Assembly (NCBI GenBank): GCA_963842525.1
Contig: CAWJGT010000019.1
Span: 1-64,000 of the forward strand
DNA: 64,000 bases
Reading direction: 5' to 3'
DNA from: an uncultured Holophagales bacterium
GTDB lineage: Bacteria; Acidobacteriota; Thermoanaerobaculia; Multivoradales; UBA5704
Part shown: positions 20,063-57,091 of the stretch, in pieces
Numbering within the stretch: the stretch's first letter is position 1
Layout: the number at the start of each line of letters is the position of its first letter
The notes under the pieces: generated by a model
Databases searched by the model: none
Told to the model about the DNA's origin: nothing
The model's input: only the letters and a program-made list of their open reading frames with translations
Made by a program: the position numbers and the translations under genes

Positions 20063-21730
20063 GTGACGACGATCCTGGAGAGCAAGGTCCAGCGCGGCGA
20101 GGCGTTCGAGCGGCAGGCGGAGCACTGGCGGGCGGAGGTGCAGCGCCTCCGCGAGCAGGAGGACCGCATCCGGCTCGGCGGCGGCCTCAAGGCCCAGGAC
20201 CGGCAGCGCGCCCAGGGGAAGATGACCGCCCGCAAGCGCGTCGAGGCCCTCTGCGATCCGGGAGCCCCCTTCCTCGAGCTCGGCCTCTGGGCGGCTCACG
20301 GCTTCTATGAAGAGTACGGCGGCGCCCCGGCGGCCGGCGTTGTCGTGGGGATCGGAAAGATCCATGGCCGCGACGTGGTGGTGGTCTCCAACGACGCCAC
20401 GGTCAAGGCCGGCGCCTGGTTCCCCATGACCTGCAAGAAGGTCCTGCGCGCCCAGGAGATCGCCCTGGAAAACCGGTTGCCGATCGTCTACCTGGTGGAT
20501 TCGGCGGGCGTCTTCCTCCCCCTCCAGGACGAGATCTTCCCGGACAGGGAGCACTTCGGCCGGGCCTTCTACAACAACGCCCGTCTCTCCGCCGAAGGGG
20601 TCTTCCAGATGGCGGCTATCATGGGCTCCTGCGTGGCCGGCGGCGCCTACCTCCCCATCATGAGCGACGAGTCCCACATCGTGGAGGGGACAGGCTCGAT
20701 CTTCCTCGCCGGCTCGCACCTGGTGAAGGCGGCGATCGGCGAGCAGGTCGACAACGAGGAGCTCGGCGGCGCCCTGGTCCAGTGCGACATCTCCGGCGTG
20801 GTGGACCACCGCCATCCGGACGACGCCTCGTGCCTGGCGAAGATCCGCAGCCAGTTCGCCCAGCTCGCCGTTCCACCGATGGCCCCTTTCGCCCGCCGCG
20901 AGCCCGTGGAGCCCCTTTACCCGGCCGAGGACCTCTACGGCCTGATGCCGGTCGACCGGTCGCGCCCGTACGACACCTACGAGGTCCTGGCGCGCCTGCT
21001 CGACGGCAGCGAGCTCGACGAGTACAAGGCCACCTACGGCCGCACCCTGATCTGCGGCACCGGCTGGATCGGCGGCTGGCCCGTGGGCATCGTGGCCAAC
21101 CAGCGCTCGATCGTGCCGCGGAAGATTGGCACCGGCCAGCAGGACCGCGAGCTCCAGATCGGCGGCGTCATCTATTCCGATTCGGCGGACAAGGCGGCGC
21201 GCTTCGTCGAGCTGTGCAACCAGAAGAAGATCCCGCTCTTCTTCCTCCAGGACGTGACCGGCTTCATGGTAGGGAGCCGGGCCGAGCGCGGCGGCATCAT
21301 CAAGGACGGCGCCAAGCTGGTCAACGCCGTCGCCAACTCGACGGTCCCCAAGATCGCCCTTTTCGCCGGCAATTCCTATGGCGCCGGCAACTACGCCATG
21401 TGCGGCAAGGCCTACGGCCCGCGCTTCCTCTATGCCTGGCCCTCGGCCTCCATCGCGGTGATGGGAGGAGACCAGGCGAGCAACACCCTGCTCTCGATCC
21501 AGCTCAAGAACCGGGGCGCCGACGTCTCCGAGGAGGAGAAGCAGCAGCGCCTCGCCGAGATCCGCGCCCGCTACGCCGCCGCCATGGACCCCCGCTACGC
21601 CGCCGCCCGCCTCTGGGTGGACGCCCTCATCGACCCCGCCGAGACCCGTCAGATCCTCGCCCGCTCGCTGGCCAGCGCGGCGATGAACCCGAACATCCCG
21701 GAGTTCAGGACGGGCGTGCTTCAGACGTAG
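20063..21730 (+). CDS. Acyl-CoA carboxylase carboxyltransferase subunit (methylcrotonyl-CoA carboxylase beta-like, called mccB here)
   Basis: NDATVKAG, YLVDSAGVFLPLQ, GSCVAGGAY, QDVTGFMVG, SYGAGNYAMCG and ARLWVDALIDP. Confidence 0.95.
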   Translation: MTTILESKVQRGEAFERQAEHWRAEVQRLREQEDRIRLGGGLKAQDRQRAQGKMTARKRVEALCDPGAPFLELGLWAAHGFYEEYGGAPAAGVVVGIGKIHGRDVVVVSNDATVKAGAWFPMTCKKVLRAQEIALENRLPIVYLVDSAGVFLPLQDEIFPDREHFGRAFYNNARLSAEGVFQMAAIMGSCVAGGAYLPIMSDESHIVEGTGSIFLAGSHLVKAAIGEQVDNEELGGALVQCDISGVVDHRHPDDASCLAKIRSQFAQLAVPPMAPFARREPVEPLYPAEDLYGLMPVDRSRPYDTYEVLARLLDGSELDEYKATYGRTLICGTGWIGGWPVGIVANQRSIVPRKIGTGQQDRELQIGGVIYSDSADKAARFVELCNQKKIPLFFLQDVTGFMVGSRAERGGIIKDGAKLVNAVANSTVPKIALFAGNSYGAGNYAMCGKAYGPRFLYAWPSASIAVMGGDQASNTLLSIQLKNRGADVSEEEKQQRLAEIRARYAAAMDPRYAAARLWVDALIDPAETRQILARSLASAAMNPNIPEFRTGVLQT

Positions 21731-21962
21731 AATGTGAAAATTGGAGGACCGGTCCATGGGCATCATCCACATCGACCTGCCCGAGAGCGTCCTGTTCGCG
21801 ACAGGCCAATCGGAAGAGGAATTCGTCCGCGAGGCGAAGCTCGTCCTCGCATTACGGATGTTCGAGCAGGGCCGGATCTCTTCCGGCCGGGCAGCCGAGC
21901 TCTGCGGCCTGCCCAGAGTGGACTTCCTCTTCGCTGCCGGACGGGCGGGCATCCCTGTCGCA
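21600..21962 (+). repeat. 363-bp direct repeat, copy 1 (mccB 3' end plus UPF0175 gene)
   Basis: Collinear with 28642-29004. Confidence 0.95.
21756..21962 (+). pseudogene. UPF0175 antitoxin-like gene, 3'-truncated and chimeric
   Basis: Same protein as 28798..29049 up to GIPVA, then runs into an srkA-derived fragment. Confidence 0.85.
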
Positions 21963-21963
21963 C

Positions 21964-22092
21964 GGGTTGCACCGCAAGCCGCCGGCTTCGACGGCGGCCA
22001 GTACCTTCTCGGGCGTCAGAGTCGAGTCAGGAACAGGTCGGTCGCGGGCTCGAGGTGGGTCGAAGACGTCATGGGGACAATGTAGCACGGCC
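21964..22092 (-). pseudogene. Diverged copy of the srkA 5' end and upstream region
   Basis: Aligns to 35520-35646 (LTPEKVLAAVEAGGLRCNP) with synonymous substitutions, a 5-bp duplication and a 3-bp deletion. Confidence 0.9.
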
Positions 22093-22174
22093 GGTCCGGG
22101 CAAGCAGAGGTAGCCGTAAACATTTTGCCGGGCGTCGGTGTCTAAAGCTTTGTCGCTCGGCCCAGAGCGCTTCA

Positions 22175-22335
22175 GTGTTCTTCGATCCCTTCAGAAAACG
22201 ATCTGCCACAAGGTTAAGTCTGACATTATGCTCAAGAAACGCTTTGAGGCCCGCGAGCACCGAGGAGAACCCCTGCGTCGAGTCGGTCACCTGTTTCACA
22301 AGCTCGTCTCCGTCGCCGGTGAAACCGGCCTTCGA
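22175..22335 (-). pseudogene. C-terminal fragment of an SRPBCC/AHSA1-like protein
   Basis: AGFTGDGDELVKQVTDSTQGFSSVLAGLKAFLEHNVRLNLVADRF resembles the terminal helix of SRPBCC proteins. No 5' part present. Confidence 0.65.
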
Positions 22336-22839
22336 TTCCTTGCGGCAGCGGCAATACTATTGCTCAGCTTCTTCATTTTCTCGCGACCAGCCCCTGCGGC
22401 GGTGAAGGGCGTCGTAGACGTTGACGAGGATGCTCTGGCTCGGCTGCCCGCCGAAGCACAGGAAACTGTTCGCAAGGTGCTCGTTCCCGTGTTGGGACCC
22501 CGAGATGGTGCCTCTGCAGATCAGGCGAAGGTCCTCGTCCTGGGCCGTGGTGAGCACTACAGCCTGAAGGTGGCGATGCCTGATTATGGCTGGATCCTCT
22601 ATGGCGGAGGTCCGCCGCTTACAGACATGCCTGAGCCCAAGCCCCGCCTCGCGCATATCAAGCTCCGAGGCGAAGGAGGAATGATTTCGGTCAGTGAAGA
22701 GGTGTGGAACCTGGTCTGGACCGAGAACGGCGTGCGCTATCACCTGACGTTTGCGTGTGAAATGTGGGCGGCTCATTTGTGCGCGACGCCTGATGCCGCA
22801 GTCGATGTGATGGACGATCTCGTGCTCATCCGGAGGTAA
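22228..22839 (+). CDS. Exported hypothetical protein, partner of the M23 peptidase (start uncertain)
   Basis: Signal-like LAAAAILLLSFFIFSRPAPA and C-terminal WTENGVRYHLTFAC...C. The stop is 2 bp before the M23 start. Confidence 0.7.
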   Translation: MLKKRFEAREHRGEPLRRVGHLFHKLVSVAGETGLRFLAAAAILLLSFFIFSRPAPAAVKGVVDVDEDALARLPAEAQETVRKVLVPVLGPRDGASADQAKVLVLGRGEHYSLKVAMPDYGWILYGGGPPLTDMPEPKPRLAHIKLRGEGGMISVSEEVWNLVWTENGVRYHLTFACEMWAAHLCATPDAAVDVMDDLVLIRR

Positions 22840-22841
22840 AC

Positions 22842-25800
22842 GTGCGGCATACGCGGATCACGTCTCTCTTTCTCTTTTTCGCTGTAATTCACTCTGTCCT
22901 CCTGTTCGCCGAGGACTTCAACTACTTGCCGCCGGGTGACTTGATCCCCGGCACCGGCACGGGCGTCAACGACTGCACGACGCATGTTCCGTCGCCGCTC
23001 CTGTACCCGATCCGTCAGTACCCTTCCTTCCCCAAGTCCCAGGTGCACAACGACCCCCAGGGCTTGTGCCTGTCCGCCAGCAAATATGATCACCCCTGGC
23101 GCGACAACTTCTGCGAGTGCCGTTCCCGGGAAGCCAGCGACACCCCGGAATGCCCTGCCCAGGGCAGCAACTGTACTTCTGGCGAAGACGGCCACCATCA
23201 AGGCGTGGATATCCTCCCTCCGACGTGCGCCAATAATTCGACCTACGAGGTCGTCGCCGTGGCCTCCGGGAATCTTCAGCGCGTCAACAGCTACGTCGTC
23301 GATCTCACGCCGGACAACGCACCGGGGATCACCTATCGATACCTGCACATGTCGAACGTCATCGCCGACCAGCATGTCGAGCGCGGAGCCGTGATCGGGA
23401 ACGTCTCCAACGTATTCACGGCGCCGACAACGATACATCTGCACTTCGAGATTCTTGTCAATGGACGCCACGTCTCGCCATACATGACCTTGCTCGATGC
23501 CTATCGACAGACGATCGGCAGGATCGCGCCCGGCGCCCGGGTCCGCGCCACAAAAGCCCTGACTGTGCATGGCAGCGCGGCGGGAAGCACGATCACCTCC
23601 AAGGCAGCAGGTGCGACCGGAGTCGTTGTGGGGAACACGCAGCAAGCCAACTACGAGGGCAACTGTTGGATCTGGAAGCAGATTCAGTGGGATGATGGCC
23701 TGGTCGGATACTCCCAGGATAACTACCTCGCCGTCGTTGCGCCGACCAGCCTCGTACAGGTCAATCATGCCGGGAGCCTGATGCCGGCCGGCTCCTCCAG
23801 CAACGCCTCTGTCGTCACTCTTGGGGGCCACGTGACCTCGCCGACAGGGAAAGACGTGGCTCTGGAAGTCGAGCTGCGACGTCTGGATGAGTTTGGCGGC
23901 TCGTTCACCGGCTCGAAGACCCACGAAGCGGCTCTACGACCCAGCGGCACGACAACCAGCCTTTGCGTTTCGGGTTTGATCAATGGGACCTACCATTGGC
24001 GGGCTCGGGTCCGCGACAGCAACGGCAGCTTTACGCCCTGGCAGTCCTTCGGAGGAAACTCCGACAGCGCAGGAGACTTCTCGGTTCAGGAGACCGTCTG
24101 CGGTGTCTGTGCTCCGTGGCCCAGCGAGCCGGATAATCCAATGCTGGCCGCAGGCGCATGTACGCCAACAGCGCAAGCGCCCGCAGTAACCACCACGGAT
24201 GCAACAGGCATCACGCAGGCGAGCGCCAGCCTCAACATGTCGGTCGATCCGAACGGGGCGTCAACCAACGTCTATTTCGACTATGGCCCGACGACAAGCA
24301 TGTCCCTGGTCACGAGCTCAAAAAATGTCGGCGCAGGAAACGCCTCGATTCCGGCGAGTATCACGGTGACTGGCCTTGCCTGCAATACGAAGTACTACTA
24401 CCGGGCGCGCGCATCGAATTCCGCCGGAGCTGCAACACCACCTGGGGGAATGCTCTCCTTCACGACCAGCTCCTGCGGAGGCGGCTCCCAGGCTCTGCAG
24501 CTCGTAGCAGACCCAAGCTTCGAGGCTGGACCCAACGGCTGGTGGGTTGCAAGCCCCGCTTTCTATATCGATGGCAGACCCAGCTTCACCAATCCCCGCA
24601 CGGGAAACAACTATGCATTCCTCTCCAATCCCGATGGGAGCCGGGGGAACAACTTGACTGGAGGGATGATCTCGCCCTCCGTCACGATCCCTTCAAATGC
24701 GACCGACCTGGATCTCCGGTTCTGGTACAGCATCACTAGCGACGAGGCTACGTCGAGCCCGGCCCTCGACAAGCTGGAGGTCTTCCTCGTCCGACCAGGA
24801 AATCAGCTCACCCTGATCACGACTCTGTCCAATGTGAATGAAAACGGGACCACGTACAGCCTGCGGTCCGAGGATATCTCCTCGTCGTTCTACGGCGACA
24901 CCGTGCAGATCTTCTTCAGAGGTACGACCAACGGAAGCCTGCCGACCGTCTTCCGGATCGATGATGTGACGCTCGAGGTTGCTCGGCCTTCCGGCGGCCC
25001 GCCGACGGTCTCGACGTCACCGGCCGACCAGGTGACGGCGGTCTCCGCGCGGCTCGGCATGACCGTCAATCCCAATGGGGCGAACACAGAGGTATGGTTC
25101 AACCTCGACCCGAACGACTCGACTCCCTCGACCGATACAGAGCGCTTCTCAGTCGGCGCCGGAACCCAGAATCAGGCCGTCTCCTGGACTGCCTATGGGC
25201 TGACCTGCGGCACGACCTACTATTTCCGCGCGCATGCGGGCAATAGTTTTGACTCGAGCGAAAGCGGCAGCATCCTGTCCTTTACGACATCTGCCTGCTC
25301 TGGTGGCGCCCCGCGAGCCGACACGGAAGCGGCAACGAACATCACACGGGATGCGGCAACATTGAATGCAAGGCCGGACGCCAATGGTCTTGCCACGGAG
25401 GCTTGGTTCGAGTGGGGAGAGACCAGCAGCCTGGGCCTGCAAACCCCGCGGCAACCGATCGGCTCGGCGGTCGGCAGGGTCAACTATTCGTACCGCCTGA
25501 CCGGCCTCTCCTGTGGACGGACCTACTATTTCGAAAATCACGCGGCGAACGCCGCGGACGAGGATGACGGCGCAACCCTCTCGTTCACGACAGCTTCGTG
25601 CGACCTCCCGTCTCCGAGCAGTGAGCTGCTGCTCTTCACCTCGCGGCAGGCGTGCTCTGGAACCGCGCCGGCCGTGCTCCTGGGATGGACCATGCCTCAA
25701 GGCGCCGACCCTCTGGTTACCATCCGCAGGGCCGACGGCCAGTATGCCGCCACGGTCAACACAGCGGTCAAAGGGCCGGTGCATGAGATCGACTCCGGGC

Positions 25801-27966
25801 TCGCGTTCGGGAATGTCTATCGATTCACCGTGGAGGCGCAGGTTGGTGGAGCGACACTCGTCTCGAATCGAGCTCGCCATCCCCATAGCGTCTGATGAGT
25901 GCAGGCTTCCGGCCGCCGAAGGAGATCCGCCGCATCGGCCGGTGCTCTGGGCGGAGAGGCCCTTCTGTGAAAACGGTGTCGCGAAGGTGAGGCTGTGGTG
26001 GACCGAGGCCCTGGGGGCGCAATCCTACTCACTCCAGCGGATCGGTGCCTACATGCCGTCGGCGACCTACGACAACATCACGGAAAGAAGCTTCGTGGAC
26101 TCCAACCTCACGCCCGGAGGTGGTACGGTCTATCAGCTCAGCGCGCGCAACAACAGCGGCTCGATCAGCTCGTGGAATGTGAGCGTGATCGTCCCCGGGA
26201 CCGTCTGCAGCACGGCAGGAGCGCCAGGGTCGTTCTCGGCAACGATGGGGGATCCCGTCTGCGACGAGGGTGAGGGGACAGCAACCCTTCAATGGGGGCA
26301 GAGCACCGGTTCTGCACAGGACTATCGCCTCTTTGAGTTTTCAGACCACCTGCTCTGGCGGTTGGATGATGACCAGGACGATTTCAGCGACGATGTTAAC
26401 CACCTTGACCTCGGAACAGTGGCTCGTGTAGTGGTTCAAGCAGAATCCGCAACGACTCCTGGCAGGTTCCGCGAAGCACACCCGGTGGCAAAGCTCATTC
26501 CGCTCGACGTGTGTGGCGCGAGCACCGCACGCCCGACCGTGGGGACCGCAACAGCATCGTCTGTGCGTACGGATCAGGCACTCTTGAAAGTCAGTGTCAC
26601 TGCCAACGGCTCGGACACCAGCGCCCAATTCCAGTGGGGCACATCCAGCGCCTACGGTTTCCAGACACCTTCCCGGGTGATCGGCAACAAGCACAGCGCC
26701 GTCACTCTTGGAGAGGTCCTGACCGGCCTCTCCTGCGGCACGACCTATCATTTCCGCGCCGTGGCATCCAACGCGCAGGGAACCACGCTTGGAAACGGCG
26801 GAACCTTTACAACGCTGCCGTGCACGCCACCGCCTGTCTGCACAGTCGGCATGGTCAACCCCGCAGGGGGCGAGACATGGGTCAAGGGCAGCGCACAGAC
26901 CATCCGGTGGAGCGCAGGGCCGGGGTGTGTCGAATTCGCTGTACGCCTGGTGCGCACCGCCTCCGGCGACAACCTTTCGATCGCAAGCTTCCTGGCCGGC
27001 GACAGCTTCGCGTTCGTGCCACCGGCCTGGCTTGTGCCGGGCTCGGGCTATCAGGTCAAAGTCATCGGCTTCAACTCGGATGGGCTTGGCACTCCCGAGA
27101 GCACGGCGACTTCAAACGCTTTCAGCGTCGTCAATCCCTCGGTCCTGCCGGCCGTCATCTTCGAGGACACGGTGGAGGGCAATGACGACCTCAACTGGTC
27201 CAGTTATGGATGGGGCATCATCGGAGGCGATGAGTTTTCCCACAGCCCGACACACTCCCATGCGAACATCCCGGCGTTCTTCGGGACGGATGTCACGAGC
27301 TATCTCTTGAGCCCGAAGCTGGACCTCGGCGGGCGCAGTTCCCTCCTCCTGACCTTCTGGCAGCGCTTCGAGTCTCCGAGCTTCGGGAGCGTTCAGATCT
27401 GGATCAAGGATGCGGAGGGAGGCTACTGGCACGTGCGCCAGCTCACTGACTGGCATACCGATTGGCGGCCGGTGACCATTGACTTGAGCCGCTTCCTGGG
27501 AGAGCCCTGGATCCAGCTTTCTTTCGAGTCCTATACTCCGAATGGCCCGGCGGCGGGCTCCTGGTTTGTCGACGACATTCGTGTCTATGAGCCCGGGCCG
27601 ACCGACTTTTACACTGTAGCCCCGTGCCGGGTCGTAGACACCAGGCAAGGGCAGTCGCCGCTTCTTCCAGGAGCCGTGCGGTCGTTTGCCGTGGCAGGTG
27701 CCTGCGGAATACCTCCGACGGCCCGCGCCGTGTCACTCAACGTCACTGCCGTGAATCCCACATCGGGAGGCTATATCAACCTCTTTCCAGCCGATCGCGC
27801 ACAGCCGGCCACGAGCACGGTCAATTTCACCGCAGGCCGGGTTCGGGCAAACAATGCAATTCTCGGTCTGTCCGAGGACGGGCGGCTTGCCGCCTCTGTC
27901 AGCAGCGCCGGCCAGGTGGATCTGGTGATCGACGTCAACGGATATTTTGCAGACAGCCCTCCGTAG
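22842..27966 (+). CDS. Giant secreted multidomain M23 metallopeptidase (~1700 aa; indel near 25870): M23, SH3-like, FN3-like repeats, jelly-roll domains and C-terminal PCRVVDTR domain
   Basis: Signal peptide, HQGVD and HLH zinc motifs, four GLxCxxxYxxxxxAxN FN3-like units, GGETW...IRW module, and terminal FYTVAPCRVVDTR...IDVNGYF. Visibly lower GC than flanks. Confidence 0.85.
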
Positions 27967-28057
27967 GTGGGCTTTGCCCAGGAGTTCTACCCCCGCTGAC
28001 CCGGCACACAAGGGGCCGGTGGATTTCCCTGGCCTCCGAGTTTGCGGAGCGCGCGGT

Positions 28058-28642
28058 GGTATCATTCCACTCCATGCTCCCCTCAAGGCTGCGGCGTGGC
28101 GCTCTGGCGCTCTTCCTCTGTTCCATTCCCTGCCTCTGCCAGGCCGGCCTTACGCCGCGCCTGGTGCGTGACATCGATGAGACTTCCTATGCCGGCAGCT
28201 CCAGCCCGCGACAGTTCGTGGGTGTGGAGCACGGCGTGGCGTTCACCGCTTTCGGAGGACGCGAGCTGTGGATCCTCGCGCCGCAGGACCCGCTTGAAGT
28301 CAACGTTCCGCTCGGAGTGGACAGGCGCCTCCTCCTCACGATCTCCGGCGGCGGACTCGGCCTTCCCAATCCACGGGAAGCGCGTGGGCCGGCTCGGGCG
28401 CGGTCTACACGAATCCACTTCAGTGGTACAGCCCCGTCCAGCCCCGTCGTCTTCGAGGCCGACCGGGGAACGGGGCGTGGCCTGTGGACAGTCAACTATG
28501 GGACCGGCCCCGTCGAGCTCGCCAAGCCGCTGCCGCTGGAGGATGGCAGTCTGCTGCGGGATTTCATACCCGAGAGATGGACGAGCTACTTCATCGCCCG
28601 CCATCGCACGCTGGGGACCGCCCTGTGGAAGACCGATGGCAC
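28058..28642 (+). pseudogene. Scrambled copy of the 5' end of the ELWxxDGT gene at 39643
   Basis: Aligns to 39629-40253 with an inversion, an out-of-order segment, a deletion and a 10-bp duplication. Confidence 0.92.
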
Positions 28643-29004
28643 CGCCGCCCGCCTCTGGGTCGACGCCCTCATCGACCCCGCCGAGACCCGCCAGGTCCTC
28701 ACCCGCTCGCTGGCCGCTGCGGCGATGAACCCGAACATCCCGGAGTTCAAGACCGGGGTGCTGCAGACGTAGAATGTGAAGATCGGAGGACCGGTCCATG
28801 GGCATCATCCACATCGACCTGCCCGAGAGCGTCCTGTTCGCGACAGGCCAATCGGAAGAGGAATTCGTCCGCGAGGCGAAGCTCGTCCTCGCATTACGGA
28901 TGTTCGAGCAGGGCCGGATCTCTTCCGGTCGGGCAGCCGAGCTCTGCGGCCTGCCCAGAGTGGACTTCCTCTTCGCTGCCGGACGGGCGGGCATCCCTGT
29001 CGCA
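28642..29004 (+). repeat. 363-bp direct repeat, copy 2 (mccB 3' end plus UPF0175 gene)
   Basis: Collinear with 21600-21962. Confidence 0.95.
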
Positions 29005-29049
29005 GACCTCGATGCAGCCGAATTGGATCGAGAGTTTGCGGATGACTGA
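28798..29049 (+). CDS. UPF0175 family putative antitoxin
   Basis: LALRMFEQGRISSGRAAELCGLPRVDF...ELDRE; overlaps a PIN gene. Confidence 0.88.
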   Translation: MGIIHIDLPESVLFATGQSEEEFVREAKLVLALRMFEQGRISSGRAAELCGLPRVDFLFAAGRAGIPVADLDAAELDREFADD

Positions 29050-29272
29050 AGGGCCAATCGTCTGTAACGCCGGACCTCTCATCGCCCTCTCGATCGTTGG
29101 ACAGCTCGGGCTCCTCGAAAAGCTCTATCGCCGCGTGCTGGTTCCGCATGCTGTCATCCAGGAGGTCGTGGGCGCCGGAGCCGGCAGGATCGGGGCTGCC
29201 GAGGTTGCGGTCGAAACGCCGGTAAAGTCGATCTGCAGCCGATACCAGTTTGCGACGCTGTGTCTTCGGTAG
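29042..29272 (+). pseudogene. PIN-domain (DUF3368/VapC-like) toxin, truncated after ~56 codons
   Basis: IVCNAGPLIALSIVGQLGLLEKLYRRVLVPHAVIQEV, followed by unrelated sequence. Confidence 0.8.
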
Positions 29273-29414: not shown

Positions 29415-29585
29415 GAGAAACAGCAGCGCCTCGCCGAAATCCGTGCCCGCTACGCCGCCGCCCGCCTCTGGGTCGACGCCCTCATCGACCCCGCCGAGAC
29501 CCGCCAGGTCCTCACCCGCTCGCTGGCAAGCGCGGCGATGAATCCGAACATCCCGGAGCTCAGGACCGGGGTGTTGCAGACTTAG
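29415..29585 (+). pseudogene. Third copy of the mccB 3' end
   Basis: Aligns to 21536-21730 with a 24-bp deletion between cccgctacgccgccgcc repeats. Confidence 0.93.
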
Positions 29586-35626: not shown

Positions 35627-35789
35627 GAGGCCAATGTAGCACGGCCCTGAAGACGCAGCAGGTAGAGTGCGAACCGAGGCTGCGAGAGTGAACCTGTTGT
35701 CATCTGCGGCCGAGCCATGCCGCAGGCGACTTCACACGCCAAGTCGTTGACAGCTCATGAGATGCCATCGAGATCGAGGCTCTGCCCAT

Positions 35790-36116
35790 GGACCGGGCAC
35801 AACGTGCCACAGTCTCTGGACCGTGCTTCAAGGACCGCACTTCATGTGCCACGGACCGCGGTCAACGTGACGTTTCCTACAGTCAATGCTTGAAAGCCCC
35901 GGGTCCGCGTGACGTTTCCTGTAGTCAATGCTTGAAGGCCCCGGGTCCGCGTGACGTTTCCTGTAGTCAATGCTACAGGGACCCGGGTCCGCGTGGCGTT
36001 TCCTGTAATCAATGCTTCAAGGCCCCGGGTCCGCGCCCCGTTTCCTACAGTCAATGCTTGAAGGACCGCGGTCCGCGTGACTTTTTCTCCAATCCTTACC
36101 TGAGGCACCGCGGTCT
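35790..36116. repeat. Tandem array of 42-bp units (21-bp sub-period), ~7.5 copies
   Basis: Consensus ggmccsgggtccgcgtgacgtttcctryagtcaatgcttgaa. Open in one frame on each strand. Confidence 0.92.
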
Positions 36117-36193
36117 GTGAGGCCTGCCGCGCGGACGACGTCGCTCGAAGTGCACCCGACGTGACGATGGGCGGTCGATCCTCTGTCGTCACG

Positions 36194-42283: not shown

Positions 42284-42388
42284 GTAGGGGCAACCCTTGT
42301 GGTTGCCCTGGTCTCGCCACGATTGCCGATTCGCAGTCCCTCATCACAGGGGCAATCCCAACAGGGCAACCACAAGGATTGCCCCTGC
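42284..42388. repeat. GTAG-type REP doublet (REPIN-like)
   Basis: gtaggggcaacccttgtggttgccctg ... cagggcaaccacaaggattgcccctgc. Confidence 0.8.
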
Positions 42389-42462
42389 ACGTGCACATTC
42401 GGACCGCCCTGGCAATCGGGTTGGCCGCCGGCCACTCTCCGCAACCTGTAAAATGCAGCACC

Positions 42463-50083: not shown

Positions 50084-50084
50084 A

Positions 50085-50195: not shown

Positions 50196-51965
50196 ATGTC
50201 CCCTTCGAACGAACGGCCCTTTCAGCTCCTCGACCCTCTCGCCCGTGCGGCCGTTCCGCTGGCCGCCTGGGCGGCGATGGTCGCGTATGCGGTCCGCGAG
50301 GCGGACCCGACCGCCCTTGCCGAGGGGCGCTACCTGGCGCTGTTGGCGGCCGCGGCGCTGCTTGCGGTGGCCGCCCTGGCGCCGGCTCCGGCCTGGGAGG
50401 CGGGCCTCGGAGCCGTCCTGGCGGTGACGGCCGTCTGGGCGCTCCCGGCCGGCCCGGGGCGGGGAGCCGCTCTCGTGCTGTTGCTCGCGGCCGTCCTGGC
50501 GGTGGCCGCGGTGCGGCGGCTCGCGCGAGACCTCCCCGGGTTGTCTTTCGAGGCCGCGATCCCGCTCGCCCTCGGCGCCCAGCTCCTGCTGCGCGGCGAG
50601 CTCCTTCTGGCGCCGGCATTGAGCCCGCGCACCCTGGTCGCCCTGCTCGTGCTCCCTCTTGCCGGCGCGGCGGCGATGGCGGTCCTGGCGCAACGGCACG
50701 GAGCCGCCAGGACGCTGATCGCCACGGGCACCGCGCTCCTCCTCGCGCCGGGCTGGAACGTGGCCGCGACGCTCGCCCTGCTGGCGCTGGCCGCCGGGGA
50801 CCTGCTGGGGCGGTCCGCGCTCGGGAAGCCGGTCCGGGGGGCGGCGCTTCTGGTCCTCCTGGCGCCGATCGCCTGGCAACCCGGCCCGGGCCTGGCCGCC
50901 GCCGCAGCAGGGCTCGCGCTCGCCTGGCCGCGGCTCGCCCTGGCCTTGAGCGTGCCTCTGGCCGCGGGACTCTGGCTCGCCTGGCCGCAGCCGGTCGATC
51001 TGAGGATTCAGCAGGTCCTCTGGCTGCCCCTGCTGTTGCCGGCCGTGCTGCTCCCGGGCCGGGACCGCGTCTGGATCGTGCCGACGGCGGTGCTGCTCGC
51101 CGCGGCCACGCCTCCGATCCCCGACATGTCGCCCCTGGCCGCGGCGCTGGCGCTCGCGGCCCTGGCGCAACGGCCGGAGGGGCCCGCGGTCGTCGCGCAG
51201 CGGGTCTGGACCGGATCGCTCCTCTTCGGGGTGTTTCTCCTCTCCTCGTACCCTTGGCTGCGCGACGAGCCGCTGCCGGCGGTGCTCGGGCTTCTCGGTC
51301 TGGAGCCGGGGGTGGTGGCGGCTGCTGTGGTGATGGGGGGCTGGCTGGTGATCGCGGCCCTCGCCCTTCGCCCAGGGTTTACACCCTGGGCTACCCAATG
51401 GCGCCCTCCGGGCTCAACACCAGAGCAGGGTAGCTCCGGGTGTGAACCCGGGGCGCGGCTGGGCGCCGCGGTTGCGGGATTTGCGATTTTCCTCGCCCTC
51501 CTCCTCCACATCCCCCCCGCCACCAAACCGCTCCTGCCGTTCGGCAGCGCGGTGCTCGACGCGGCCCATCCGGCCTGGGAGGTCCCGCTCGCCGGTGAGG
51601 CCGGCGAGGTCGGCGCCGTCGTCCTGGAGTCGAGCCTGTCCAACGGGGCGGCCCTGGCCGCGGGGACGCCGGTTGCCGTGGCCCGCCTGCGCGGAGCGGA
51701 CGGCATGGACCGGGTGTGGATGGTGCGGGCCGGGATGGAGACGGGCGAATGGGCCGCGCGGCGGCCGGACGTCGAACGGACGAGCCGGCTGCGGTCTCCC
51801 GCGGGGTGGGTCTCGTTCGTGGCGGGCGACTTCTTCGGCCAGCGCTACCGGGCCTGGTGGCGGCTCGGCGAGCCCGGCCGGTTCGCACGGCTGCGGATCG
51901 AGCGGAGCCCCGGCCTGCCGGCCGACCTCGTCCTGGCCCTCCACCAGGTGGAGGTCCGGCCGTGA
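50196..51965 (+). CDS. Polytopic membrane protein with soluble C-terminal domain
   Basis: Many Ala/Leu-rich TM segments. First gene of the coupled glycosylation cluster. Confidence 0.75.
   Translation: MSPSNERPFQLLDPLARAAVPLAAWAAMVAYAVREADPTALAEGRYLALLAAAALLAVAALAPAPAWEAGLGAVLAVTAVWALPAGPGRGAALVLLLAAVLAVAAVRRLARDLPGLSFEAAIPLALGAQLLLRGELLLAPALSPRTLVALLVLPLAGAAAMAVLAQRHGAARTLIATGTALLLAPGWNVAATLALLALAAGDLLGRSALGKPVRGAALLVLLAPIAWQPGPGLAAAAAGLALAWPRLALALSVPLAAGLWLAWPQPVDLRIQQVLWLPLLLPAVLLPGRDRVWIVPTAVLLAAATPPIPDMSPLAAALALAALAQRPEGPAVVAQRVWTGSLLFGVFLLSSYPWLRDEPLPAVLGLLGLEPGVVAAAVVMGGWLVIAALALRPGFTPWATQWRPPGSTPEQGSSGCEPGARLGAAVAGFAIFLALLLHIPPATKPLLPFGSAVLDAAHPAWEVPLAGEAGEVGAVVLESSLSNGAALAAGTPVAVARLRGADGMDRVWMVRAGMETGEWAARRPDVERTSRLRSPAGWVSFVAGDFFGQRYRAWWRLGEPGRFARLRIERSPGLPADLVLALHQVEVRP
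51370..51454. repeat. REP-like inverted repeat located in frame within a CDS
   Basis: gcccagggtttacaccctgggctaccc / gggtagctccgggtgtgaacccggggc, the same family as 10575-10632. Confidence 0.85.
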
Positions 51966-51970
51966 GGTCC

Positions 51971-54202
51971 ATGGGCGGAACGCGCGCCGTGCTGGAAACC
52001 GGCCCGGTCTTCGCCACCGCGGCGGTGGCCATGGCGCTTGCCGCGCGCTGGCTGCCGCTGCCGCCGGATGACCCGTTCCGCGGCACCCTCGTGGCCCTGC
52101 CGCTGATCCTTGCGGGTCTGCACGAGATCCGCCGTTGGGCGGAGTGGAAAGGCGGAAGGCCGCTCTCCCCGGGCGGCACGGCGGGCGAGCTTGTCGCCCT
52201 CGGCCTGCTGGTCCTGCTCGTGCTCGCCCGCCCGCACCTGCGGCTGACCGGGGCGGACGAGGTCGTGGCGGCCGGCCTGCTGCTGGTGCTCGCCCACCGG
52301 ATCGCACGCCAGGTCCGCGCCCTGCGCCCGCTCCTGGGCACGCGCATCCCCCGGCGCCCGTCCTGCCTCTTCTTCTTCCTGCCGCTGGTGGTCTACCTGG
52401 CGATCCTCCCGTGGTCGGCCCGCCACCGGCAGCCGGACGGGGACGAGCCCTACTACCTGCTGATCACTCACAGCCTGGCCTACGACTTCGACGCCGAGCT
52501 GACGAACAACTACGCCCGGCAGGACTGGCGCCGCTTCATGGACCGCCGGATCGAGCCGCAGCCGGGCGACCCGGTGGGGCCGCGCGGCGAGCTCTACTCC
52601 CGCCACAACGAGCTGCTGCCGCTCGTGCTGGTCCCGGCCTATCGCCTGGGCGGCAAGCTCGGAGCCCTCGCGGTGATGGCGGCGCTCACCGCGGCGCTCG
52701 CCTGGATGACCTTGCGCCTGGCGCGGCACTATGTCGCGGACCGCCCGGGCGAGGTCCTGGCGGCCTGGGCGCTGACGGCGTTCCTGCCGCCGCTCCTCCT
52801 CTACTCCTACCAGGTGTGGGTGGAGGTGCCGGCGGCGCTGCTGCTGGCCGCGGCCCTGGACCGCATCCTCGACCTCGACGGCGAGCGCCACTGGAGCTGG
52901 AAGGAATGGATGGGGATCGGCCTCTCGGTCCTCCTCCTGCCGCTGTTGAAGATCCGCCTCCTCCTGCTGGCCGGCCCTCTGCTTGCGCTGGGATGGTGGC
53001 ATGCCGGCCGGCCGCGGCGGCCGGTGATGATCCTCGGCGGGCTGCTCGCCCTGGTGGCGGCCGGTATCCTGCTCCACAACCAGCTCCTCTATTCGAACCC
53101 GCTCAAGATCCACACCTGGGAGGAGGTCGACCCGCACCGCTACGCGCTGGATTCCTACCTCAAGGGCGGGCTCGGGCTTTTCTGGGATGCGGCGTTCGGC
53201 CTGTTCGCCTGCGCGCCGGTCTGGCTCCTGCTGGTCCCGGCCACTCTCCTGCTCCTGCTCCGCGGCCGGCGGCTCCTGGCGCATCTGGTGGTGCTGACGT
53301 TCCCCTACCTGGTGATCGTCGCGCCGCGGATGGAGTGGTACGGCGGGTGGTCTCCCCCGTTCCGCTATGCCCTGGTCGCCCTGCCGCTGCTCGGCCTGGC
53401 GCTGGTGCCGCTGCTGGTGCGCCGCGACCGGCCGGGTGCCCGCGCCCTGCTCGCCGGGCTCGGCGTGCTGACGCTGGTGTTGACGCTCGTCTGGGTCACG
53501 CTTCCCGGGTGGACGTACAACTTCGCGAACGGCCGGACCTACGTGCTCGACCGCCTCGACGAGCGGCTGAGCCTCGACCTGGCGCGCTTCTTCCCCAGCT
53601 CGGTCCGCCCGCGGACCGCCACATGGGTCTGGCCGCCGGTGACGCTGGTCCTGCTGCCCCTCGTCTGGTGGCTGCCGGGAAGAAAGAGAACGGGATCAGG
53701 CTCACTCTCTCCCGGTACATGGGAGAGGGCCGGCATCGCCGTCGTGCTGCTGGCCGCGGCGGTGCTGCCGGTCGCCGCCGCGCGCCTGCCCACCCGGACC
53801 GTCGAGCTGGAGGACCCGCAGGTGTGGAAGAGCGGCGGCCATCTCCACCCCGACCTCTGGGTGATCGAGCGGACGCGCTACCGCGGCGGCTGGGTGCTGC
53901 GGGTGAGCGAGGCGCTGCGGGCGCCCGTCACGCCCGGGGGACGGCGGGCGCGGGTCACCCTGCACGCCCAGTTCATCCGCAACCAGCCGGTCCCCTACCA
54001 CCTCGACCTGCTGGCCGGCCCCCGCAAGCTCGCCACCTGGAGCCCGGTCCGGCCGCGGGTCTGGCAGGAGGTCTCCTTCGGACCGTTCGACTGGCCGGGC
54101 TCGGCGCCGCTGGTCCTCTACGGCCACGGGCCGCACCTGCCCGGGGACACGGACCTCAACGGCGTGATCCTGGATCGGGTCGAGATCGAATGGCTGGACT
54201 GA
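51971..54202 (+). CDS. GT-C-fold membrane glycosyltransferase-like protein
   Basis: DGDEPYYLLITHSL motif, GLF..APV, WYGGWSPPFRY and many TM helices. Confidence 0.8.
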   Translation: MGGTRAVLETGPVFATAAVAMALAARWLPLPPDDPFRGTLVALPLILAGLHEIRRWAEWKGGRPLSPGGTAGELVALGLLVLLVLARPHLRLTGADEVVAAGLLLVLAHRIARQVRALRPLLGTRIPRRPSCLFFFLPLVVYLAILPWSARHRQPDGDEPYYLLITHSLAYDFDAELTNNYARQDWRRFMDRRIEPQPGDPVGPRGELYSRHNELLPLVLVPAYRLGGKLGALAVMAALTAALAWMTLRLARHYVADRPGEVLAAWALTAFLPPLLLYSYQVWVEVPAALLLAAALDRILDLDGERHWSWKEWMGIGLSVLLLPLLKIRLLLLAGPLLALGWWHAGRPRRPVMILGGLLALVAAGILLHNQLLYSNPLKIHTWEEVDPHRYALDSYLKGGLGLFWDAAFGLFACAPVWLLLVPATLLLLLRGRRLLAHLVVLTFPYLVIVAPRMEWYGGWSPPFRYALVALPLLGLALVPLLVRRDRPGARALLAGLGVLTLVLTLVWVTLPGWTYNFANGRTYVLDRLDERLSLDLARFFPSSVRPRTATWVWPPVTLVLLPLVWWLPGRKRTGSGSLSPGTWERAGIAVVLLAAAVLPVAAARLPTRTVELEDPQVWKSGGHLHPDLWVIERTRYRGGWVLRVSEALRAPVTPGGRRARVTLHAQFIRNQPVPYHLDLLAGPRKLATWSPVRPRVWQEVSFGPFDWPGSAPLVLYGHGPHLPGDTDLNGVILDRVEIEWLD

Positions 54203-55104
54203 CCGCGGTCGTCCCCACGCTGGGCCGGAGCCCGCTGCTGCTCCCCTGCCTGGAGGCCCTGCGGAAGGACGGCGGCGCCGGGCTGGAGCTGTTGGTGGTG
54301 GACCAGGGGGAGAGCCCGGCCGAGCTGCCACCAGGGCTCGCCGACCGCGTCCTGCGGCCGGGCCGCAACCTCGGCTTCGCCGCGGGGACGAACCTGGGGA
54401 TCGCCGAGGCCGCGGGCGAGCTGATCGCGACGGTCAACGACGACGTGCTCGTCGAGCCCGGATGGCTCTCCCGCCTCGCCCCGGCGCTCGCTGCCGATCC
54501 GCGCGCCGCCGCGGCGCAGGGGGTGAACCTGCTCCTCGACGACCCCGAGAGGGCCGACGGCTGCGGCCTTGCCTGGAACCGCTGGTGGCAGGCCGTCCAG
54601 GTCGGCCACGGCGAGCCGGCGCCGCCGGGGCCGGACGGAAAGCCGCGGGAGGTCTTCGGCGTCTCGGCGACGGCAGCGCTCTTCCGGCGCGAGGCCCTGC
54701 TGGCGGTGTCGCAATCGGGGCAGGCCTTCGATCCCCGGCTGGTCTCCTATTACGAGGACGTCGAGCTTGCAGGCCGCCTGCGCGGCGCCGGATACAAGGC
54801 CCTGCTGGTGCCGGCGGCACGGGCGCGGCACGCCGGGTCGGCGACCGGGAAGACGATAGGCCGCGAGCGCTGGCGGCTGATCTACGGCAACCGCTATCTC
54901 GCTGCGGCAGATCTGCTGGGGTGGGGGTTCTGGCCGCGTCTGCCTTGGATGGCGGTCCGCGATGGGCTTGATCTTCTGAGAGGAGAGGGAGAGCAGATCG
55001 CCGGAATCCTGGCGGGGTGGGGGAGGGCGGTGCGGTGCCTCCCGGGCTTCGCCCGGTCGGGTCGGCCGCGGGTGCCGTTGGGCGAGATCGAGCGGTTCCG
55101 GTAA
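54190..55104 (+). CDS. Glycosyltransferase family 2
   Basis: VVPT, LVVDQG, NLGFAAGTN, VNDD and YYEDVEL. Confidence 0.9.
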   Translation: MAGLTAVVPTLGRSPLLLPCLEALRKDGGAGLELLVVDQGESPAELPPGLADRVLRPGRNLGFAAGTNLGIAEAAGELIATVNDDVLVEPGWLSRLAPALAADPRAAAAQGVNLLLDDPERADGCGLAWNRWWQAVQVGHGEPAPPGPDGKPREVFGVSATAALFRREALLAVSQSGQAFDPRLVSYYEDVELAGRLRGAGYKALLVPAARARHAGSATGKTIGRERWRLIYGNRYLAAADLLGWGFWPRLPWMAVRDGLDLLRGEGEQIAGILAGWGRAVRCLPGFARSGRPRVPLGEIERFR

Positions 55105-55140
55105 CCTGTGCCGGTGACCTCACCCCCTAGTCCCCTCTCC
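54970..55140 (+). repeat. 171-bp direct repeat, copy 1 (GT2 3' end plus half palindrome)
   Basis: Collinear with 56921-57091. Confidence 0.93.
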
Positions 55141-55239
55141 GCGCCGTGTTGTCAGCGGGCGCACAAGCCGGCCGTTGACCACGAAGAAGCGGCTTAAGAT
55201 TTGGCTTCCAATAGAAAGCGCGGGCCTTCCTCTTTCTTG

Positions 55240-56667
55240 TCAGTTGCTGTTCGCGGCGACTTGCTCGACCGCCGTCTTCATCGCCTGAAGATCTGACGCA
55301 GCCAGCCAGCGCCCGTTCACCATCACGCCCGCGATGGCCCGCGTCGCGGCGATGTTGCGGGAGGGGTCGGCCGAAAGCAGGAGGAGATCCGCCCGCTTTC
55401 CCGCCTCGATGGTCCCGCGCAGCTTCTCTTGGCCCATGAGCCGCGCGGCGTCCCGAGTCGCGGCGATCAACGCCTCCATCGGCGTCAAGCCGGCCTCGAC
55501 CAGGTTGGCCAGCTCCTCGTGGAGAGAGAGCCCGGGAAAGACGAACGGATTGGGCGTGTCGGTCCCGGCGGCCAGCTTCACGCCCGCCCGATGAAACGCC
55601 CCGACCAGCGCGCGGCGCGTGGCGCGACCCTGCTCCACCTGCTGCCAGTCGGACGGGGTGAGGCCGCGGCGGCCGCGCTCGCTGACGCCTTTCCAGTAGC
55701 TCACGATGCCGCGGTCGACCGCTCGGATCTCCGGACCCGAGAGCCACCGATCGACCGTGGCATCGGGCGCCAGTGCCCGGTCGTTATTCACGACGGTGGG
55801 CACCGACCAGACACCCGACTGGACGATCTCCGTCGCGAGGCGCTCCATCTTCGCGGGGTCGGCCGGTATGGCGAGACGGCGCTTCGACCAGTGCGTGGCC
55901 TGTCCGCGCAGCGGGGAGTCGTTGCGCTCGATCGCATCCGCATAGTCGCCCTGGTGCTCGATGGACGTGATTCCGCTGGTGAGGATCTGGGACAGGCCGA
56001 CGGCCCGGGGAATGTGCCCCGCGAACGGCAAGCGGCGTTCGCGGGCTGCCGTCACGATGGCCGAGAACGCCTCCTGGGAGAGATTCGTGTAGATCTTGAT
56101 GAAGTCGTAGCCGGCATCCGCCTGGGCATTCACCGCGTTCCGGGCCTCTTGCGCGTTCCTGACGACCGTGTTGTCGGGCCGCGCGGGCGGATCGCCGTCC
56201 AGCACCGGACCGGCCGTGTAGATGGCCGGCGAGGGCAGGGCGCCGCTCTCGGCCTGACGCCTCCAGTCCAGGATGTATGGCCGGCCGTCCATGCTCCGGA
56301 CGGAGGTCACGCCGTAGACCAGGAAGAGTTGCAAGTAGGCGGGCGTCTCGAAATGTTCGAGATGGACGTGCGTGTCGGAAAGACCGGGAACGAGGTAATG
56401 GCCGCGCCCATCGATCGATCGCGCGCCCTTGGGGACCGACGCGCCCGAGCGCGGGCCCACCGCCTCGATCCGGCCGCCCCGGACCACGACCGTCTGGTCG
56501 CGAAGGACGACGGGACGGTCCATCGGCAACAGATCGACGCCGACGAATGCGAACGCGTCCCCCGCGGCGGCTTCCCCTTGACCCTGTCCAGCCGCTCGAA
56601 GCAGCAGCAAGCCGATAACGCAGGAAAGCAACACGGCGAAACCGCGAGGAATCGCTCTGATAGCCAT
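55240..56667 (-). CDS. Secreted amidohydrolase-family protein (inserted, antisense to the operon)
   Basis: PGLSDTHVH, GYDFIKIY, GH, SIEH, AGTD and GTIEAGKRADLLLL. Confidence 0.92.
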   Translation of the reverse strand: MAIRAIPRGFAVLLSCVIGLLLLRAAGQGQGEAAAGDAFAFVGVDLLPMDRPVVLRDQTVVVRGGRIEAVGPRSGASVPKGARSIDGRGHYLVPGLSDTHVHLEHFETPAYLQLFLVYGVTSVRSMDGRPYILDWRRQAESGALPSPAIYTAGPVLDGDPPARPDNTVVRNAQEARNAVNAQADAGYDFIKIYTNLSQEAFSAIVTAARERRLPFAGHIPRAVGLSQILTSGITSIEHQGDYADAIERNDSPLRGQATHWSKRRLAIPADPAKMERLATEIVQSGVWSVPTVVNNDRALAPDATVDRWLSGPEIRAVDRGIVSYWKGVSERGRRGLTPSDWQQVEQGRATRRALVGAFHRAGVKLAAGTDTPNPFVFPGLSLHEELANLVEAGLTPMEALIAATRDAARLMGQEKLRGTIEAGKRADLLLLSADPSRNIAATRAIAGVMVNGRWLAASDLQAMKTAVEQVAANSN

Positions 56668-56801
56668 TTGTCTCCTGGCGCCAAAGCTCACCTGCCGCGG
56701 CGGCAGATGAAGGTTGGAACCAGAATAACACGCAACGCCGCGCGGTCAGGCGTAGCGTTTTCGCCGCTGGCAACCTTCGCAGCTTTCCGGCCGACCGCTG
56801 A

Positions 56802-57091
56802 CGTGGTCGGCCCGCCACCGGCAGCCGGACGGGGACGAGCCTTACTACTCCCGCCACAACGAGCTGCTGCCGCTCGTGCTGGTCCCGGCCTATCGCCTGG
56901 GCGACAAGCTCGGAGCCCTCGATCTGCTGAAAGGAGAGGGAGAGCAGATCGCCGGAATCCTGGCGGGGTGGGGGAGGGCGGCGCGGTGCCTCCCGGGCTT
57001 CGCCCGGTCGGGTGGGCCGCGGGTGCCGTTGGGCGAGATCGAGCGGTTCCGGTAACCTGTGCCGGTGACCTCACCCCCTAGCCCCCTCTCC
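56802..57091 (+). pseudogene. Patchwork of three upstream host segments
   Basis: 56802-56848 = 52410-52456; 56845-56921 = 52594-52670; 56921-57091 = 54970-55140. Confidence 0.92.

Follow-up and report, generated by a model that had tools for sequence, protein, structure and literature searches.

Most accounts of bacterial gene gain invoke integrases, transposases or double-crossover replacement at hotspots, and additive capture that leaves gene stubs behind has been documented mainly at toxin loci, i.e. those of Rhs proteins, contact-dependent growth inhibition (CDI) as well as type VI secretion systems (T6SS). Homology-facilitated illegitimate recombination (HFIR), in which foreign DNA enters beside a homologous anchor and the far joint is made illegitimately with no integrase involved, is known from the naturally transformable bacteria Acinetobacter baylyi, Streptococcus pneumoniae and Pseudomonas stutzeri. 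Here we describe a stretch of 64,000 nucleotides (the window) of an uncultured Holophagales bacterium (GenBank assembly GCA_963842525.1, contig CAWJGT010000019.1, positions 1 to 64,000), in which the same footprint is found at metabolic, kinase, secretion and glycosyltransferase (GT) genes of an uncultured Acidobacteria class: short second copies of resident genes (stubs) adjoin accessory inserts (cargo). On balance, and with modest confidence, we regard stubs and cargo as what remains after homology-anchored, additive integration of related-strain DNA and its later illegitimate trimming.

In Escherichia coli conjugation (PMC3240628, in excerpt), single crossover of re-circularised DNA accounted for 56/60 recombinants versus 4/60 for HFIR, being 14 times commoner, and three of the four HFIR clones carried no microhomology. 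HFIR products are described in the same excerpts as an insertion with a similar-sized deletion (∼1 kb), usually with 3–10 bp of microhomology, and the Campbell-type single crossover as duplicating the homologous segment in direct orientation, with a copy flanking the insert at either end, which is the arrangement seen here. With HFIR the present locus shares foreign DNA beside a homologous anchor, an illegitimate far joint and independence of an integrase, and its joints at the GT genes and at the gene of an ELWxxDGT repeat protein (ELW) have 2–4 bp of microhomology; unlike the excerpted HFIR products, however, its inserts measure 0.6–7 kb and come with a duplicated gene segment, and two key joints have only 0–1 bp.

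Rhs tip arrays are attributed to homologous recombination with circular intermediates (PMC2935791, in excerpt), and the displacement of Rhs C-termini (Jackson et al. 2009; same excerpts) leaves serial 3′ ends in the same orientation after an intact gene, which three ends of an mccB-like carboxyltransferase gene fit here. Rhs, CDI and T6SS loci nevertheless encode polymorphic toxins, with a conserved core, a variable tip and an immunity gene, whereas the anchors here are a carboxyltransferase, a kinase, a secretion ATPase and glycosyltransferases, and some of the stubs are 5′ or internal pieces. For the T6SS arrays of Vibrio cholerae, an HFIR-like displacement has been proposed (PMC5361080, in excerpt); these modules (Kirchberger et al. 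2017; same excerpts) are likewise integrase-free additive arrays that homologous recombination alone cannot make, and their acquired genes resemble those of other strains, but they keep whole immunity genes under selection, whereas here non-functional stubs are found and the cargo, save for a small UPF0175/PIN-like cassette, is unrelated to toxin–immunity functions. Pneumococcal transformation yields tandem duplications and merodiploids by bridging sister chromatids; as described in excerpts of PMC3784515, this needs long repeats, e.g. copies of an insertion sequence (IS), at both ends and spans 100–900 kb, whereas homology at the head-to-tail joint reported here amounts to 1 bp and the unit that was duplicated did not exceed ∼20 kb. 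The kind of event is one already described for Rhs, CDI and T6SS loci, and no new mechanism is revealed.

Materials and methods

Repeats were mapped by self-blastn of the window (GC content 68%, no Ns) together with a separate repeat search. Genes were identified with Pfam and NCBIfam; extra scans used PHROGs, Rfam at gathering thresholds and a transfer RNA (tRNA) scan. The relatives comprise 80 loci with srkA orthologues from a scan with the SrkA-like protein, one genome per species, and all but three (Sorangium chromosomes) are metagenome-assembled genomes (MAGs), mostly labelled Thermoanaerobaculia or Acidobacteriota. The closest relatives share 82–84% protein identity with the SrkA-like protein of the window, and none of the 80 records is identical to it. 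The C-termini encoded by mccB were compared across 120 homologues listed, and the srkA stub across 35 relatives. In 33 of the 80 loci the contig ends within 10 kb of srkA, suggesting that many members of the class vary, or carry repeats, in this neighbourhood.

Results

The repeats in the window lie far beyond chance (E 1e-15 to 1e-169, identity 86–99%; Table 1). All pairs of host-gene copies listed in the initial annotation were recovered in place by self-blastn and the repeat search, and the third mccB end was traced back to 29415 by a protein-level match (tblastn), as had been proposed; the gene names also held, carboxyltransferase (mccB-like), T2SSE ATPase and GT2 by Pfam, and SrkA and ELWxxDGT by NCBIfam. 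The claim that copies and sources share one orientation was borne out in 6/6 independent fragment blocks (p = 1/64 under random orientation). Although the repeats are real, the one ascribed to gspE is a 64-bp internal stretch and not a gene end, and a longer gspE stub (tblastn: 79 aa, 44%) was rejected, as the part outside the 64 bp scored 25 versus a shuffle mean of 26. Other features had been overlooked: the 363-bp mccB repeat contains the last 131 nt of mccB but consists mostly of a UPF0175 antitoxin gene (Pfam), of which it has codons 1–69, and the ELW2 fragment carries an inversion, a displaced piece, a frameshift and a duplication.

The layout is directly observed: every cargo is bordered by a host-gene copy at one end and by a joint with 0–4 shared bases at the other, and direct copies of 363 bp, 131–171 bp and 290 bp (trimmed) flank the inserts E1, E2 and the amidohydrolase insert, respectively. 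The three mccB 3′ ends form a direct series, yet their left limits vary (21536 versus 21600) and one repeat reaches into another gene, 232 bp beyond the stop codon, while the stubs of srkA, ELW2, gspE and the upstream GT are 5′ or internal pieces. The GC content of the cargo is 0.61–0.62, versus 0.68 for the window.

Table 1. Genes, inserts, stubs, joints and repeat pairs of the window (paired copies are separated by ~)
Feature	Coordinates	Strand	Evidence and remarks
Intact mccB-like acyl-CoA carboxyltransferase gene	20063..21730	+	Pfam Carboxyl_trans E 2e-137
mccB 3′ end copy 1 (of triplicated segment)	21536-21730	+	End of intact gene
Truncated UPF0175, second copy, codons 1-69 of 83	21741..21962	+	Pfam UPF0175 E 8e-18
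J1, truncated UPF0175 to srkA stub	21962/21964		One extra untemplated base
srkA stub, first 107 nt + 20 nt upstream	21964..22092	-	5-bp insertion, 3-bp deletion
E1 cargo	22093..28057	+	GC 0.618; Pfam, NCBIfam
E1 cargo ORF without annotation, 233 aa	22138-22839		
E1 cargo M23 peptidase/FN3 protein	22842-25895		
E1 cargo FN3 protein	ends 27966		
ELW2 5′ pseudogene fragment (ELW′), 585 bp	28058..28642	+	Repeat search, self-blastn
mccB 3′ end copy 2	28642..28772	+	Joined to ELW2 fragment at J7
E2 cargo: UPF0175 + 76-aa ORF	28798..29272	+	
Complete UPF0175 antitoxin gene	28798-29049	+	Pfam UPF0175 E 7e-22
76-aa PIN/DUF3368-like ORF overlapping UPF0175	29042-29272	+	Atlas look-alike search
J9, start of mccB copy 3	29414/29415		
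mccB 3′ end copy 3	29415..29585	+	tblastn aa 492-555, 83%
ISAzo13-family insertion sequence	29586..30899	-	~29-nt terminal inverted repeats
Resident srkA stress-response kinase gene	34541..35626	-	NCBIfam PRK11768 E 7e-116; source-type of 21964-22092 stub
Accessory block between srkA and gspE	35647..39428	.	Without counterpart in relatives
Tandem-repeat ORF, 42-bp period, ~8 copies	35788-36120		Array 35808-36143, missing from relatives
ELW1 (ELWxxDGT repeat protein)	36194-38989	-	TIGR04534
ORF in accessory block	39034-39408		
gspE stub, 64-bp internal piece, codons 188-208	39429..39492	+	2 synonymous differences
Resident ELW2	39643..42240	+	TIGR04534 E 3e-92; source-type of 28058-28642 fragment
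Resident gspE/T2SSE ATPase gene	42379..44004	+	Pfam T2SSE E 5e-109
Intact GT pair	51965..55140	+	Frame plot of third-position GC (GC3), NCBIfam, Pfam
Third-insert cargo	55141..56801	-	Amidohydrolase gene 55240-56691, Pfam Amidohydro_1 E 4e-22
J13, amidohydrolase insert to GT stub	56801/56802		
GT stub	56802..57091	+	Three colinear pieces of GT pair
Repeat, mccB end + UPF0175	21600-21962 ~ 28642-29004		96.1%, 363 bp, E 1e-169
Repeat, mccB end	21591-21730 ~ 29446-29585		91.4%
Repeat, mccB end	28642-28772 ~ 29455-29585		93.1%
Repeat, srkA	21964-22092 ~ 35520-35646		85.6%, 2 gaps
Repeat, ELW2 part	28058-28275 ~ 39629-39844		94.0%
Repeat, ELW2 part	28354-28642 ~ 39976-40253		91.7%
Repeat, gspE	39429-39492 ~ 42940-43003		96.9%
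Repeat, GT piece 1	56802-56848 ~ 52410-52456		97.9%
Repeat, GT piece 2	56845-56921 ~ 52594-52670		98.7%
Repeat, GT piece 3	56918-57091 ~ 54967-55140		96.6%

The most complete record is kept by E1, whose four host fragments (mccB 3′ end, UPF0175, srkA 5′ end and ELW2 5′ end) are colinear with the resident genes in order and orientation. Its truncated UPF0175 meets the srkA stub at 21963 and agrees with 28798-29004 at 69/69 residues, with 1 synonymous difference in 207 coding positions. At its other end, the joint J7 (28642) is a head-to-tail tandem-type joint of positions equivalent to 40253 and 21600 with 1 bp of microhomology. Because of the four colinear fragments and this joint, E1 appears to be the skeleton of a second, heavily deleted copy of the resident 28.6–40.3-kb segment, joined head-to-tail to the resident copy; in this copy, the stretch from UPF0175 to srkA would have been deleted and the M23/FN3 cargo would stand in place of the ELW1 block. 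The interior of ELW′ contains a 49-bp inverted piece (28273-28321) between GGATC/GATCC words, a displaced 36-bp piece (28318-28353) that matches ELW2 sequence past the J7 boundary, a +1 frameshift and a 10-bp tandem duplication. Two predicted chimeric open reading frames (ORFs) are formed here: 21741-22085 (+, 114 aa) fuses the UPF0175 N-terminus to antisense srkA sequence, and 28042-28728 (+, 228 aa) reads through the stubs of ELW′ and mccB, though not in their native frame.

The C-terminal layout of the intact mccB product is common to 120/120 of the homologues listed. Copy 3 has lost 24 bp in frame (eight residues) between 17-nt direct repeats, a segment kept in 120/120 of them. Within the E2 cassette, the 76-aa ORF had an atlas score of 0.92, with 28/30 matches in the DUF3368 set, which is a lead and not a test, and Pfam gave zero matches to it even at E 1. 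An IS of the ISAzo13 family sits exactly at the stop codon of copy 3 and encloses no cargo; its ORF 29592-31325(-) is an ISAzo13-family DDE transposase (Pfam E 4e-146; NCBIfam E 5e-181), so that the statement of the initial annotation that the window holds no integrase or recombinase has to be corrected, though the IS is a bystander. Its own target duplication of 5 bp (CTTAG, at 29581-29585 and at 30900-30904) marks it as an ordinary transposition unrelated to the repeats, and since it landed exactly at that stop codon, copy 3 was contiguous with the Coa1-like gene at 30905-31325 before its arrival.

In relatives such as L001, L002 and L003, srkA and gspE are divergent neighbours, and the homology of the relatives to the window ends at 35641-35646 and restarts at 42484-42508. 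Because of this adjacency and these breaks, the whole ELW1/ELW2 block, with the 64-bp gspE stub inside, is an insertion. The srkA stub of E1 ends at the equivalent of 35646, i.e. where the homology of the relatives stops, and for this reason the E1 cargo and the resident ELW1 block are taken as alternative contents of one intergenic slot.

At the third site, the GC3 frame plot resolved the intact pair into two genes, of which the membrane GT-like one ends at 54202 and the GT2 one occupies 54199-55104. The three pieces of the GT stub (equivalent to 52410-52456, 52594-52670 and 54967-55140) are joined over 137- and 2296-bp deletions with 2–4-bp microhomologies, and the stub accordingly represents a second gene copy reduced by two deletions. 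The hairpin downstream of the intact pair is halved at 55140 by the amidohydrolase insert, and a complete hairpin, with arms CCCCCTCTCCC and GGGAGAGGGGG, directly follows the stub. This hairpin (57068-57130) opens with a GACCTCACCCCCT word, as in sequences related to the Acido-Lenti-1 small RNA; the sole Rfam match in the window, Acido-Lenti-1 at 51371-51414 (40.5 bits), is unrelated to the joints, and a 45-nt sequence related to it lies in a palindromic pair at 10561-10645. The Acido-Lenti-1-like sequences may be a dispersed element resembling repetitive extragenic palindromes, or a terminator element.

The origin of the stubs was assessed from their substitutions. Over 419 aligned codons, stubs and intact genes differ by 33 synonymous and 17 non-synonymous changes (dN/dS 0.18); the neutral expectation of 27% synonymous changes was rejected (p 7e-9), as was neutral decay of one copy since an in-situ duplication, which predicts 38–41% (p 5e-5 to 3e-4). 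Parts A and B of ELW′ contributed 15 synonymous and 7 non-synonymous changes. Relative to the resident gene, the srkA stub has an insertion of 5 bp and a deletion of 3 bp besides 7 synonymous and 2 non-synonymous changes (K2T, F3S); none of the 35 relatives comes as near to the resident gene (≤78.5%) as the stub does (85.6%), and of the changes polarised onto the stub's own lineage 4/4 are synonymous. The three mccB C-termini are near-identical, differing at six positions: the variants I/V, A/T, F/L and R/K all occur in full-length homologues, the T of copies 2 and 3 being rare (3/120); at the fifth position the A of copy 2 is found in 9/120, the S of copies 1 and 3 in 0/120 and C in 111; and the sixth, at the J7 joint, is the residue with which copy 2 opens. 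At the only two informative residues, copy 1 agrees with the nearest homologue listed, P0001, which is too weak to call the native end.

Given the dN/dS of 0.18, the rejected decay models, the homologue-like mccB variants and the 4/4 silent srkA changes, the stubs go back to genes that worked until recently and have picked up indels and rearrangements since. The view of the initial annotation that the copies are alleles that had worked, rather than decayed duplicates, gains support from the dN/dS of 0.18, from the rejection of one-branch decay (p ∼3e-4) and from the srkA polarisation. Its wording that substitutions are mostly synonymous stands for the pooled counts (33 versus 17) but leaves out frameshifts, deletions and non-silent changes, and its purely silent srkA copy was not recovered: of the 7 silent changes, 6 match the seven codon pairs it had listed, and the two replacements and two indels come in addition.

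The joints are illegitimate: those with both parents known have 0–4 bp of microhomology, namely 2–4 bp at the internal joints of GT and ELW, 1 bp at J7 and 0–1 bp at J1 and J6. Trimming is likewise evident, in the 137- and 2296-bp GT deletions, a 6.5-kb deletion at J1, the 24-bp slippage in copy 3, and the frameshift, duplication and inversion in ELW′.

Mobility signals were scarce. Among the ORFs scanned in 21.5–57.1 kb with Pfam, NCBIfam and PHROGs, no tyrosine or serine recombinase was found, the IS transposase being the only recombinase. The tRNA scan found no tRNA gene in the whole window, hence no attachment (att) site of the tRNA type, and the terminal-word search found no conserved att core at the cargo ends: direct or inverted words of ≥9 nt were absent at E1 and the ELW block and of ≥8 nt at E2, and the ends of the amidohydrolase insert showed merely two 8-nt inverted matches and none of ≥9 nt. 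On these results no integrase with a defined att core explains the repeats, as the idea of the initial annotation requires. PHROGs searches on 10 proteins (3 of the E1 cargo, 2 ORFs of E2 and 5 from other unannotated ORFs) gave weak M23/endolysin-type matches only and no prophage sign. Among the ORFs scanned with Pfam and NCBIfam, no competence, Ku or LigD genes were seen, a result limited to the 64-kb window. Two candidate explanations were discarded: mobilisation of the cargo by a transposon or IS, given the lack of terminal inverted repeats of ≥9 nt at the cargo ends and of any cargo within ISAzo13; and a Rhs/CDI/T6SS polymorphic-toxin array, the anchor being a carboxyltransferase with near-identical C-termini and Pfam detecting no Rhs, CdiA or VgrG domains.

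Several further features were observed. The homologue of window positions 10644-14838 lies in L001 (14624-18786) and L003 (14264-15932) ∼2 kb beyond PALP in the opposite relative orientation, and because of this displacement and reversal, the lineages differ by an inversion or a translocation, which has one of its ends near 10644 and the second to the left of 31345. The conserved gene of PALP, a pyridoxal-phosphate enzyme (31652-32630, -), is itself split into two frames by an extra C at ∼32285 (CCC versus CC in L001, L002 and L033). A Type ISP restriction–modification gene (46613-49744, +), matched by Type_ISP_C (E 9e-65) and carrying an N6 methylase domain as well, lies directly downstream of a conserved ABC-F gene. 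An intergenic repeat of 60–75 nt occurs in three copies of 87–90% identity (6220-6294, 61852-61926 and 61955-62016), two of which form a large hairpin between convergent genes, and a coding tandem-repeat array with a 126-bp period occupies positions 1-378.

Discussion

The sequence of steps that we propose starts from closely related strains whose DNA would carry alternative gene content for the same chromosomal neighbourhood. Incoming DNA and chromosome would recombine at a flanking gene that both have, and the other end of the incoming DNA would be joined without homology, giving gene, cargo and a partial second copy, i.e. a partial merodiploid; the redundant copy would then be cut by illegitimate deletions, inversion and slippage, until new cargo and a short stub are left. 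For the joining step, linear DNA may have entered by HFIR, or a fragment may have re-circularised and undergone a single homologous crossover; HFIR would give a duplicated segment with an illegitimate joint located within the anchor gene and downstream of the crossover, and the two routes would then yield the identical layout here. HFIR as such, to which the initial annotation had compared the locus, is not specifically supported: homology on one side and joints of 0–4 bp are found, but HFIR is not separable from single crossover. Its idea of a merodiploid that was later trimmed agrees with the four fragments that E1 keeps in resident order and with the two deletions that cut the GT stub. At least four events, nested or adjacent, are distinguished within 36 kb, as it had also counted; these would be the toxin–antitoxin cassette E2 after mccB, E1 with its M23/FN3 cargo and srkA and ELW2 stubs, the ELW2 block with the gspE stub, and the amidohydrolase with the GT stub. 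Context identifies only the outer end of a stub as native and not which copy was imported; that the incoming DNA came from other strains is what we infer.

Several observations weigh against this proposal. The microhomology at J7 and J1 (0–1 bp) is below the 3–10 bp usual for HFIR in the excerpts of PMC3240628. In the 80 loci of the relatives, proteins of the cargo had zero matches at E 1e-8, as had the ELW, UPF0175 and Coa1-like proteins, the donor arrangement was not found, and mccB lies near srkA in none. Because the 36-bp piece in ELW′ matches ELW2 beyond the J7 boundary, the right end of E1 would have been rearranged in a manner that the simple model does not predict. Synonymous divergence along E1 is uneven (UPF0175 0.02, ELW2 0.12–0.14, mccB 0.17, srkA 0.32; chi-square p 0.02), so that a single transfer does not suffice; the donor would have to be mosaic, or gene conversion would have to have followed, or the events would have been several. 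Moreover, the window itself is probably MAG-derived, like nearly all of the relatives, and the +1 frameshift in PALP could be a real pseudogene or a sequencing indel.

These last two points would suit a strain-chimeric or faulty metagenome assembly, in which one contig was threaded together from two co-existing strains that differ in gene content at this locus and the stubs are pieces of the alleles of the other strain. The lack of an identical record among relatives that are nearly all MAGs, the poor assembly of the neighbourhood (33/80 loci ended by a contig break), a scar density ∼20 times that of the relatives, the homopolymer type of the frameshift in the conserved PALP gene, and the position of J7 in sequence prone to contig breaks, namely a repeated ELWxxDGT motif and a run rich in GC, all point the same way. 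Yet the joints share 0–4 bp, far below any assembler overlap or k-mer, and the stubs are islands of 47–363 bp between unique sequence, with indels, an inversion and slippage deletions of their own, whereas haplotype threading does not create private indels or inversions; the three colinear GT pieces with two internal deletions, the clean 5-bp IS target duplication across copy 3 and the absence of Ns also speak against it. With so few bases shared at the joints, and with indels private to the stubs, we hold an assembly artefact to be unlikely. A purely internal history, with tandem duplications by unequal or illegitimate sister-chromosome exchange, decay, later allelic replacement and a separate arrival of the cargo, would make J7 exactly what it looks like, a tandem-duplication joint, and would suit the UPF0175 copies (1/207 coding positions different) and the evident slippage trimming. 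It takes more steps, however (duplication, separate cargo insertion in the same slot, and separate imports of mccB, srkA and ELW2), and requires three tandem full-length mccB genes once to have been present; with one-branch decay rejected, and with the 4/4 synonymous changes of the srkA stub lineage implying that the stub itself evolved under constraint, it is distinctly unlikely.

Capture by end joining, i.e. break repair by non-homologous or microhomology-mediated end joining with nearby or foreign filler DNA and no role for homology, would account for the 0–4 bp of microhomology, the one untemplated base at J1, and the 64-bp gspE piece and scrambled ELW′ centre, which resemble short templated patches. 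But random capture predicts neither six direct blocks nor the colinearity of E1, every stub comes from a gene of the same neighbourhood, and the pieces are 1–14% off their local template and so not recently copied from it, which makes this account very improbable. Least credible to us are site-specific islands that targeted gene ends, supplied a surrogate end and have since lost their integrase genes. The three direct mccB 3′ ends do resemble the attL, internal att and attR of tandem islands, and a surrogate gene end would likewise be under purifying selection; against this stand the differing left limits of the mccB repeats and the run of one of them 232 bp past the stop, the 5′ or internal nature of the srkA, ELW2, gspE and upstream GT pieces, which offer no fixed att, and the absence of tyrosine or serine recombinases from the ORFs scanned in 21.5–57.1 kb and of conserved cores, terminal repeats or tRNA.

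While homology-anchored additive integration with later trimming is the reading we favour for this locus, the suggestion of the initial annotation that it is a habitual mechanism in the lineage did not hold. The window has 14 repeats, of which 11 are direct and 10 of those fall in the 21.5–57.1-kb range, versus 14 repeats (6 direct) in 1.37 Mb of the 80 loci of the relatives, i.e. 0.66 per 64 kb, found in 9 of them; the ∼20-fold difference is weakened as a comparison by the 33 loci cut short by contig ends. The scar pattern appears specific to this genome and is not shown for the lineage. That an integrase-free route for adding related-strain DNA beside shared genes is unusually active in this genome or its immediate lineage, with at least four nested captures in 36 kb, seems quite improbable to us; if true, it would mean a lineage-specific repair or uptake trait, e.g. 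one-ended recombination plus end joining, by which additive capture is routine and not rare. E1 retains the colinear skeleton of what would be the merodiploid intermediate, and, should reads confirm the junctions, the locus would be a clear natural example of partial diploidy made and then pruned, whose stubs would allow the events to be dated and ordered.

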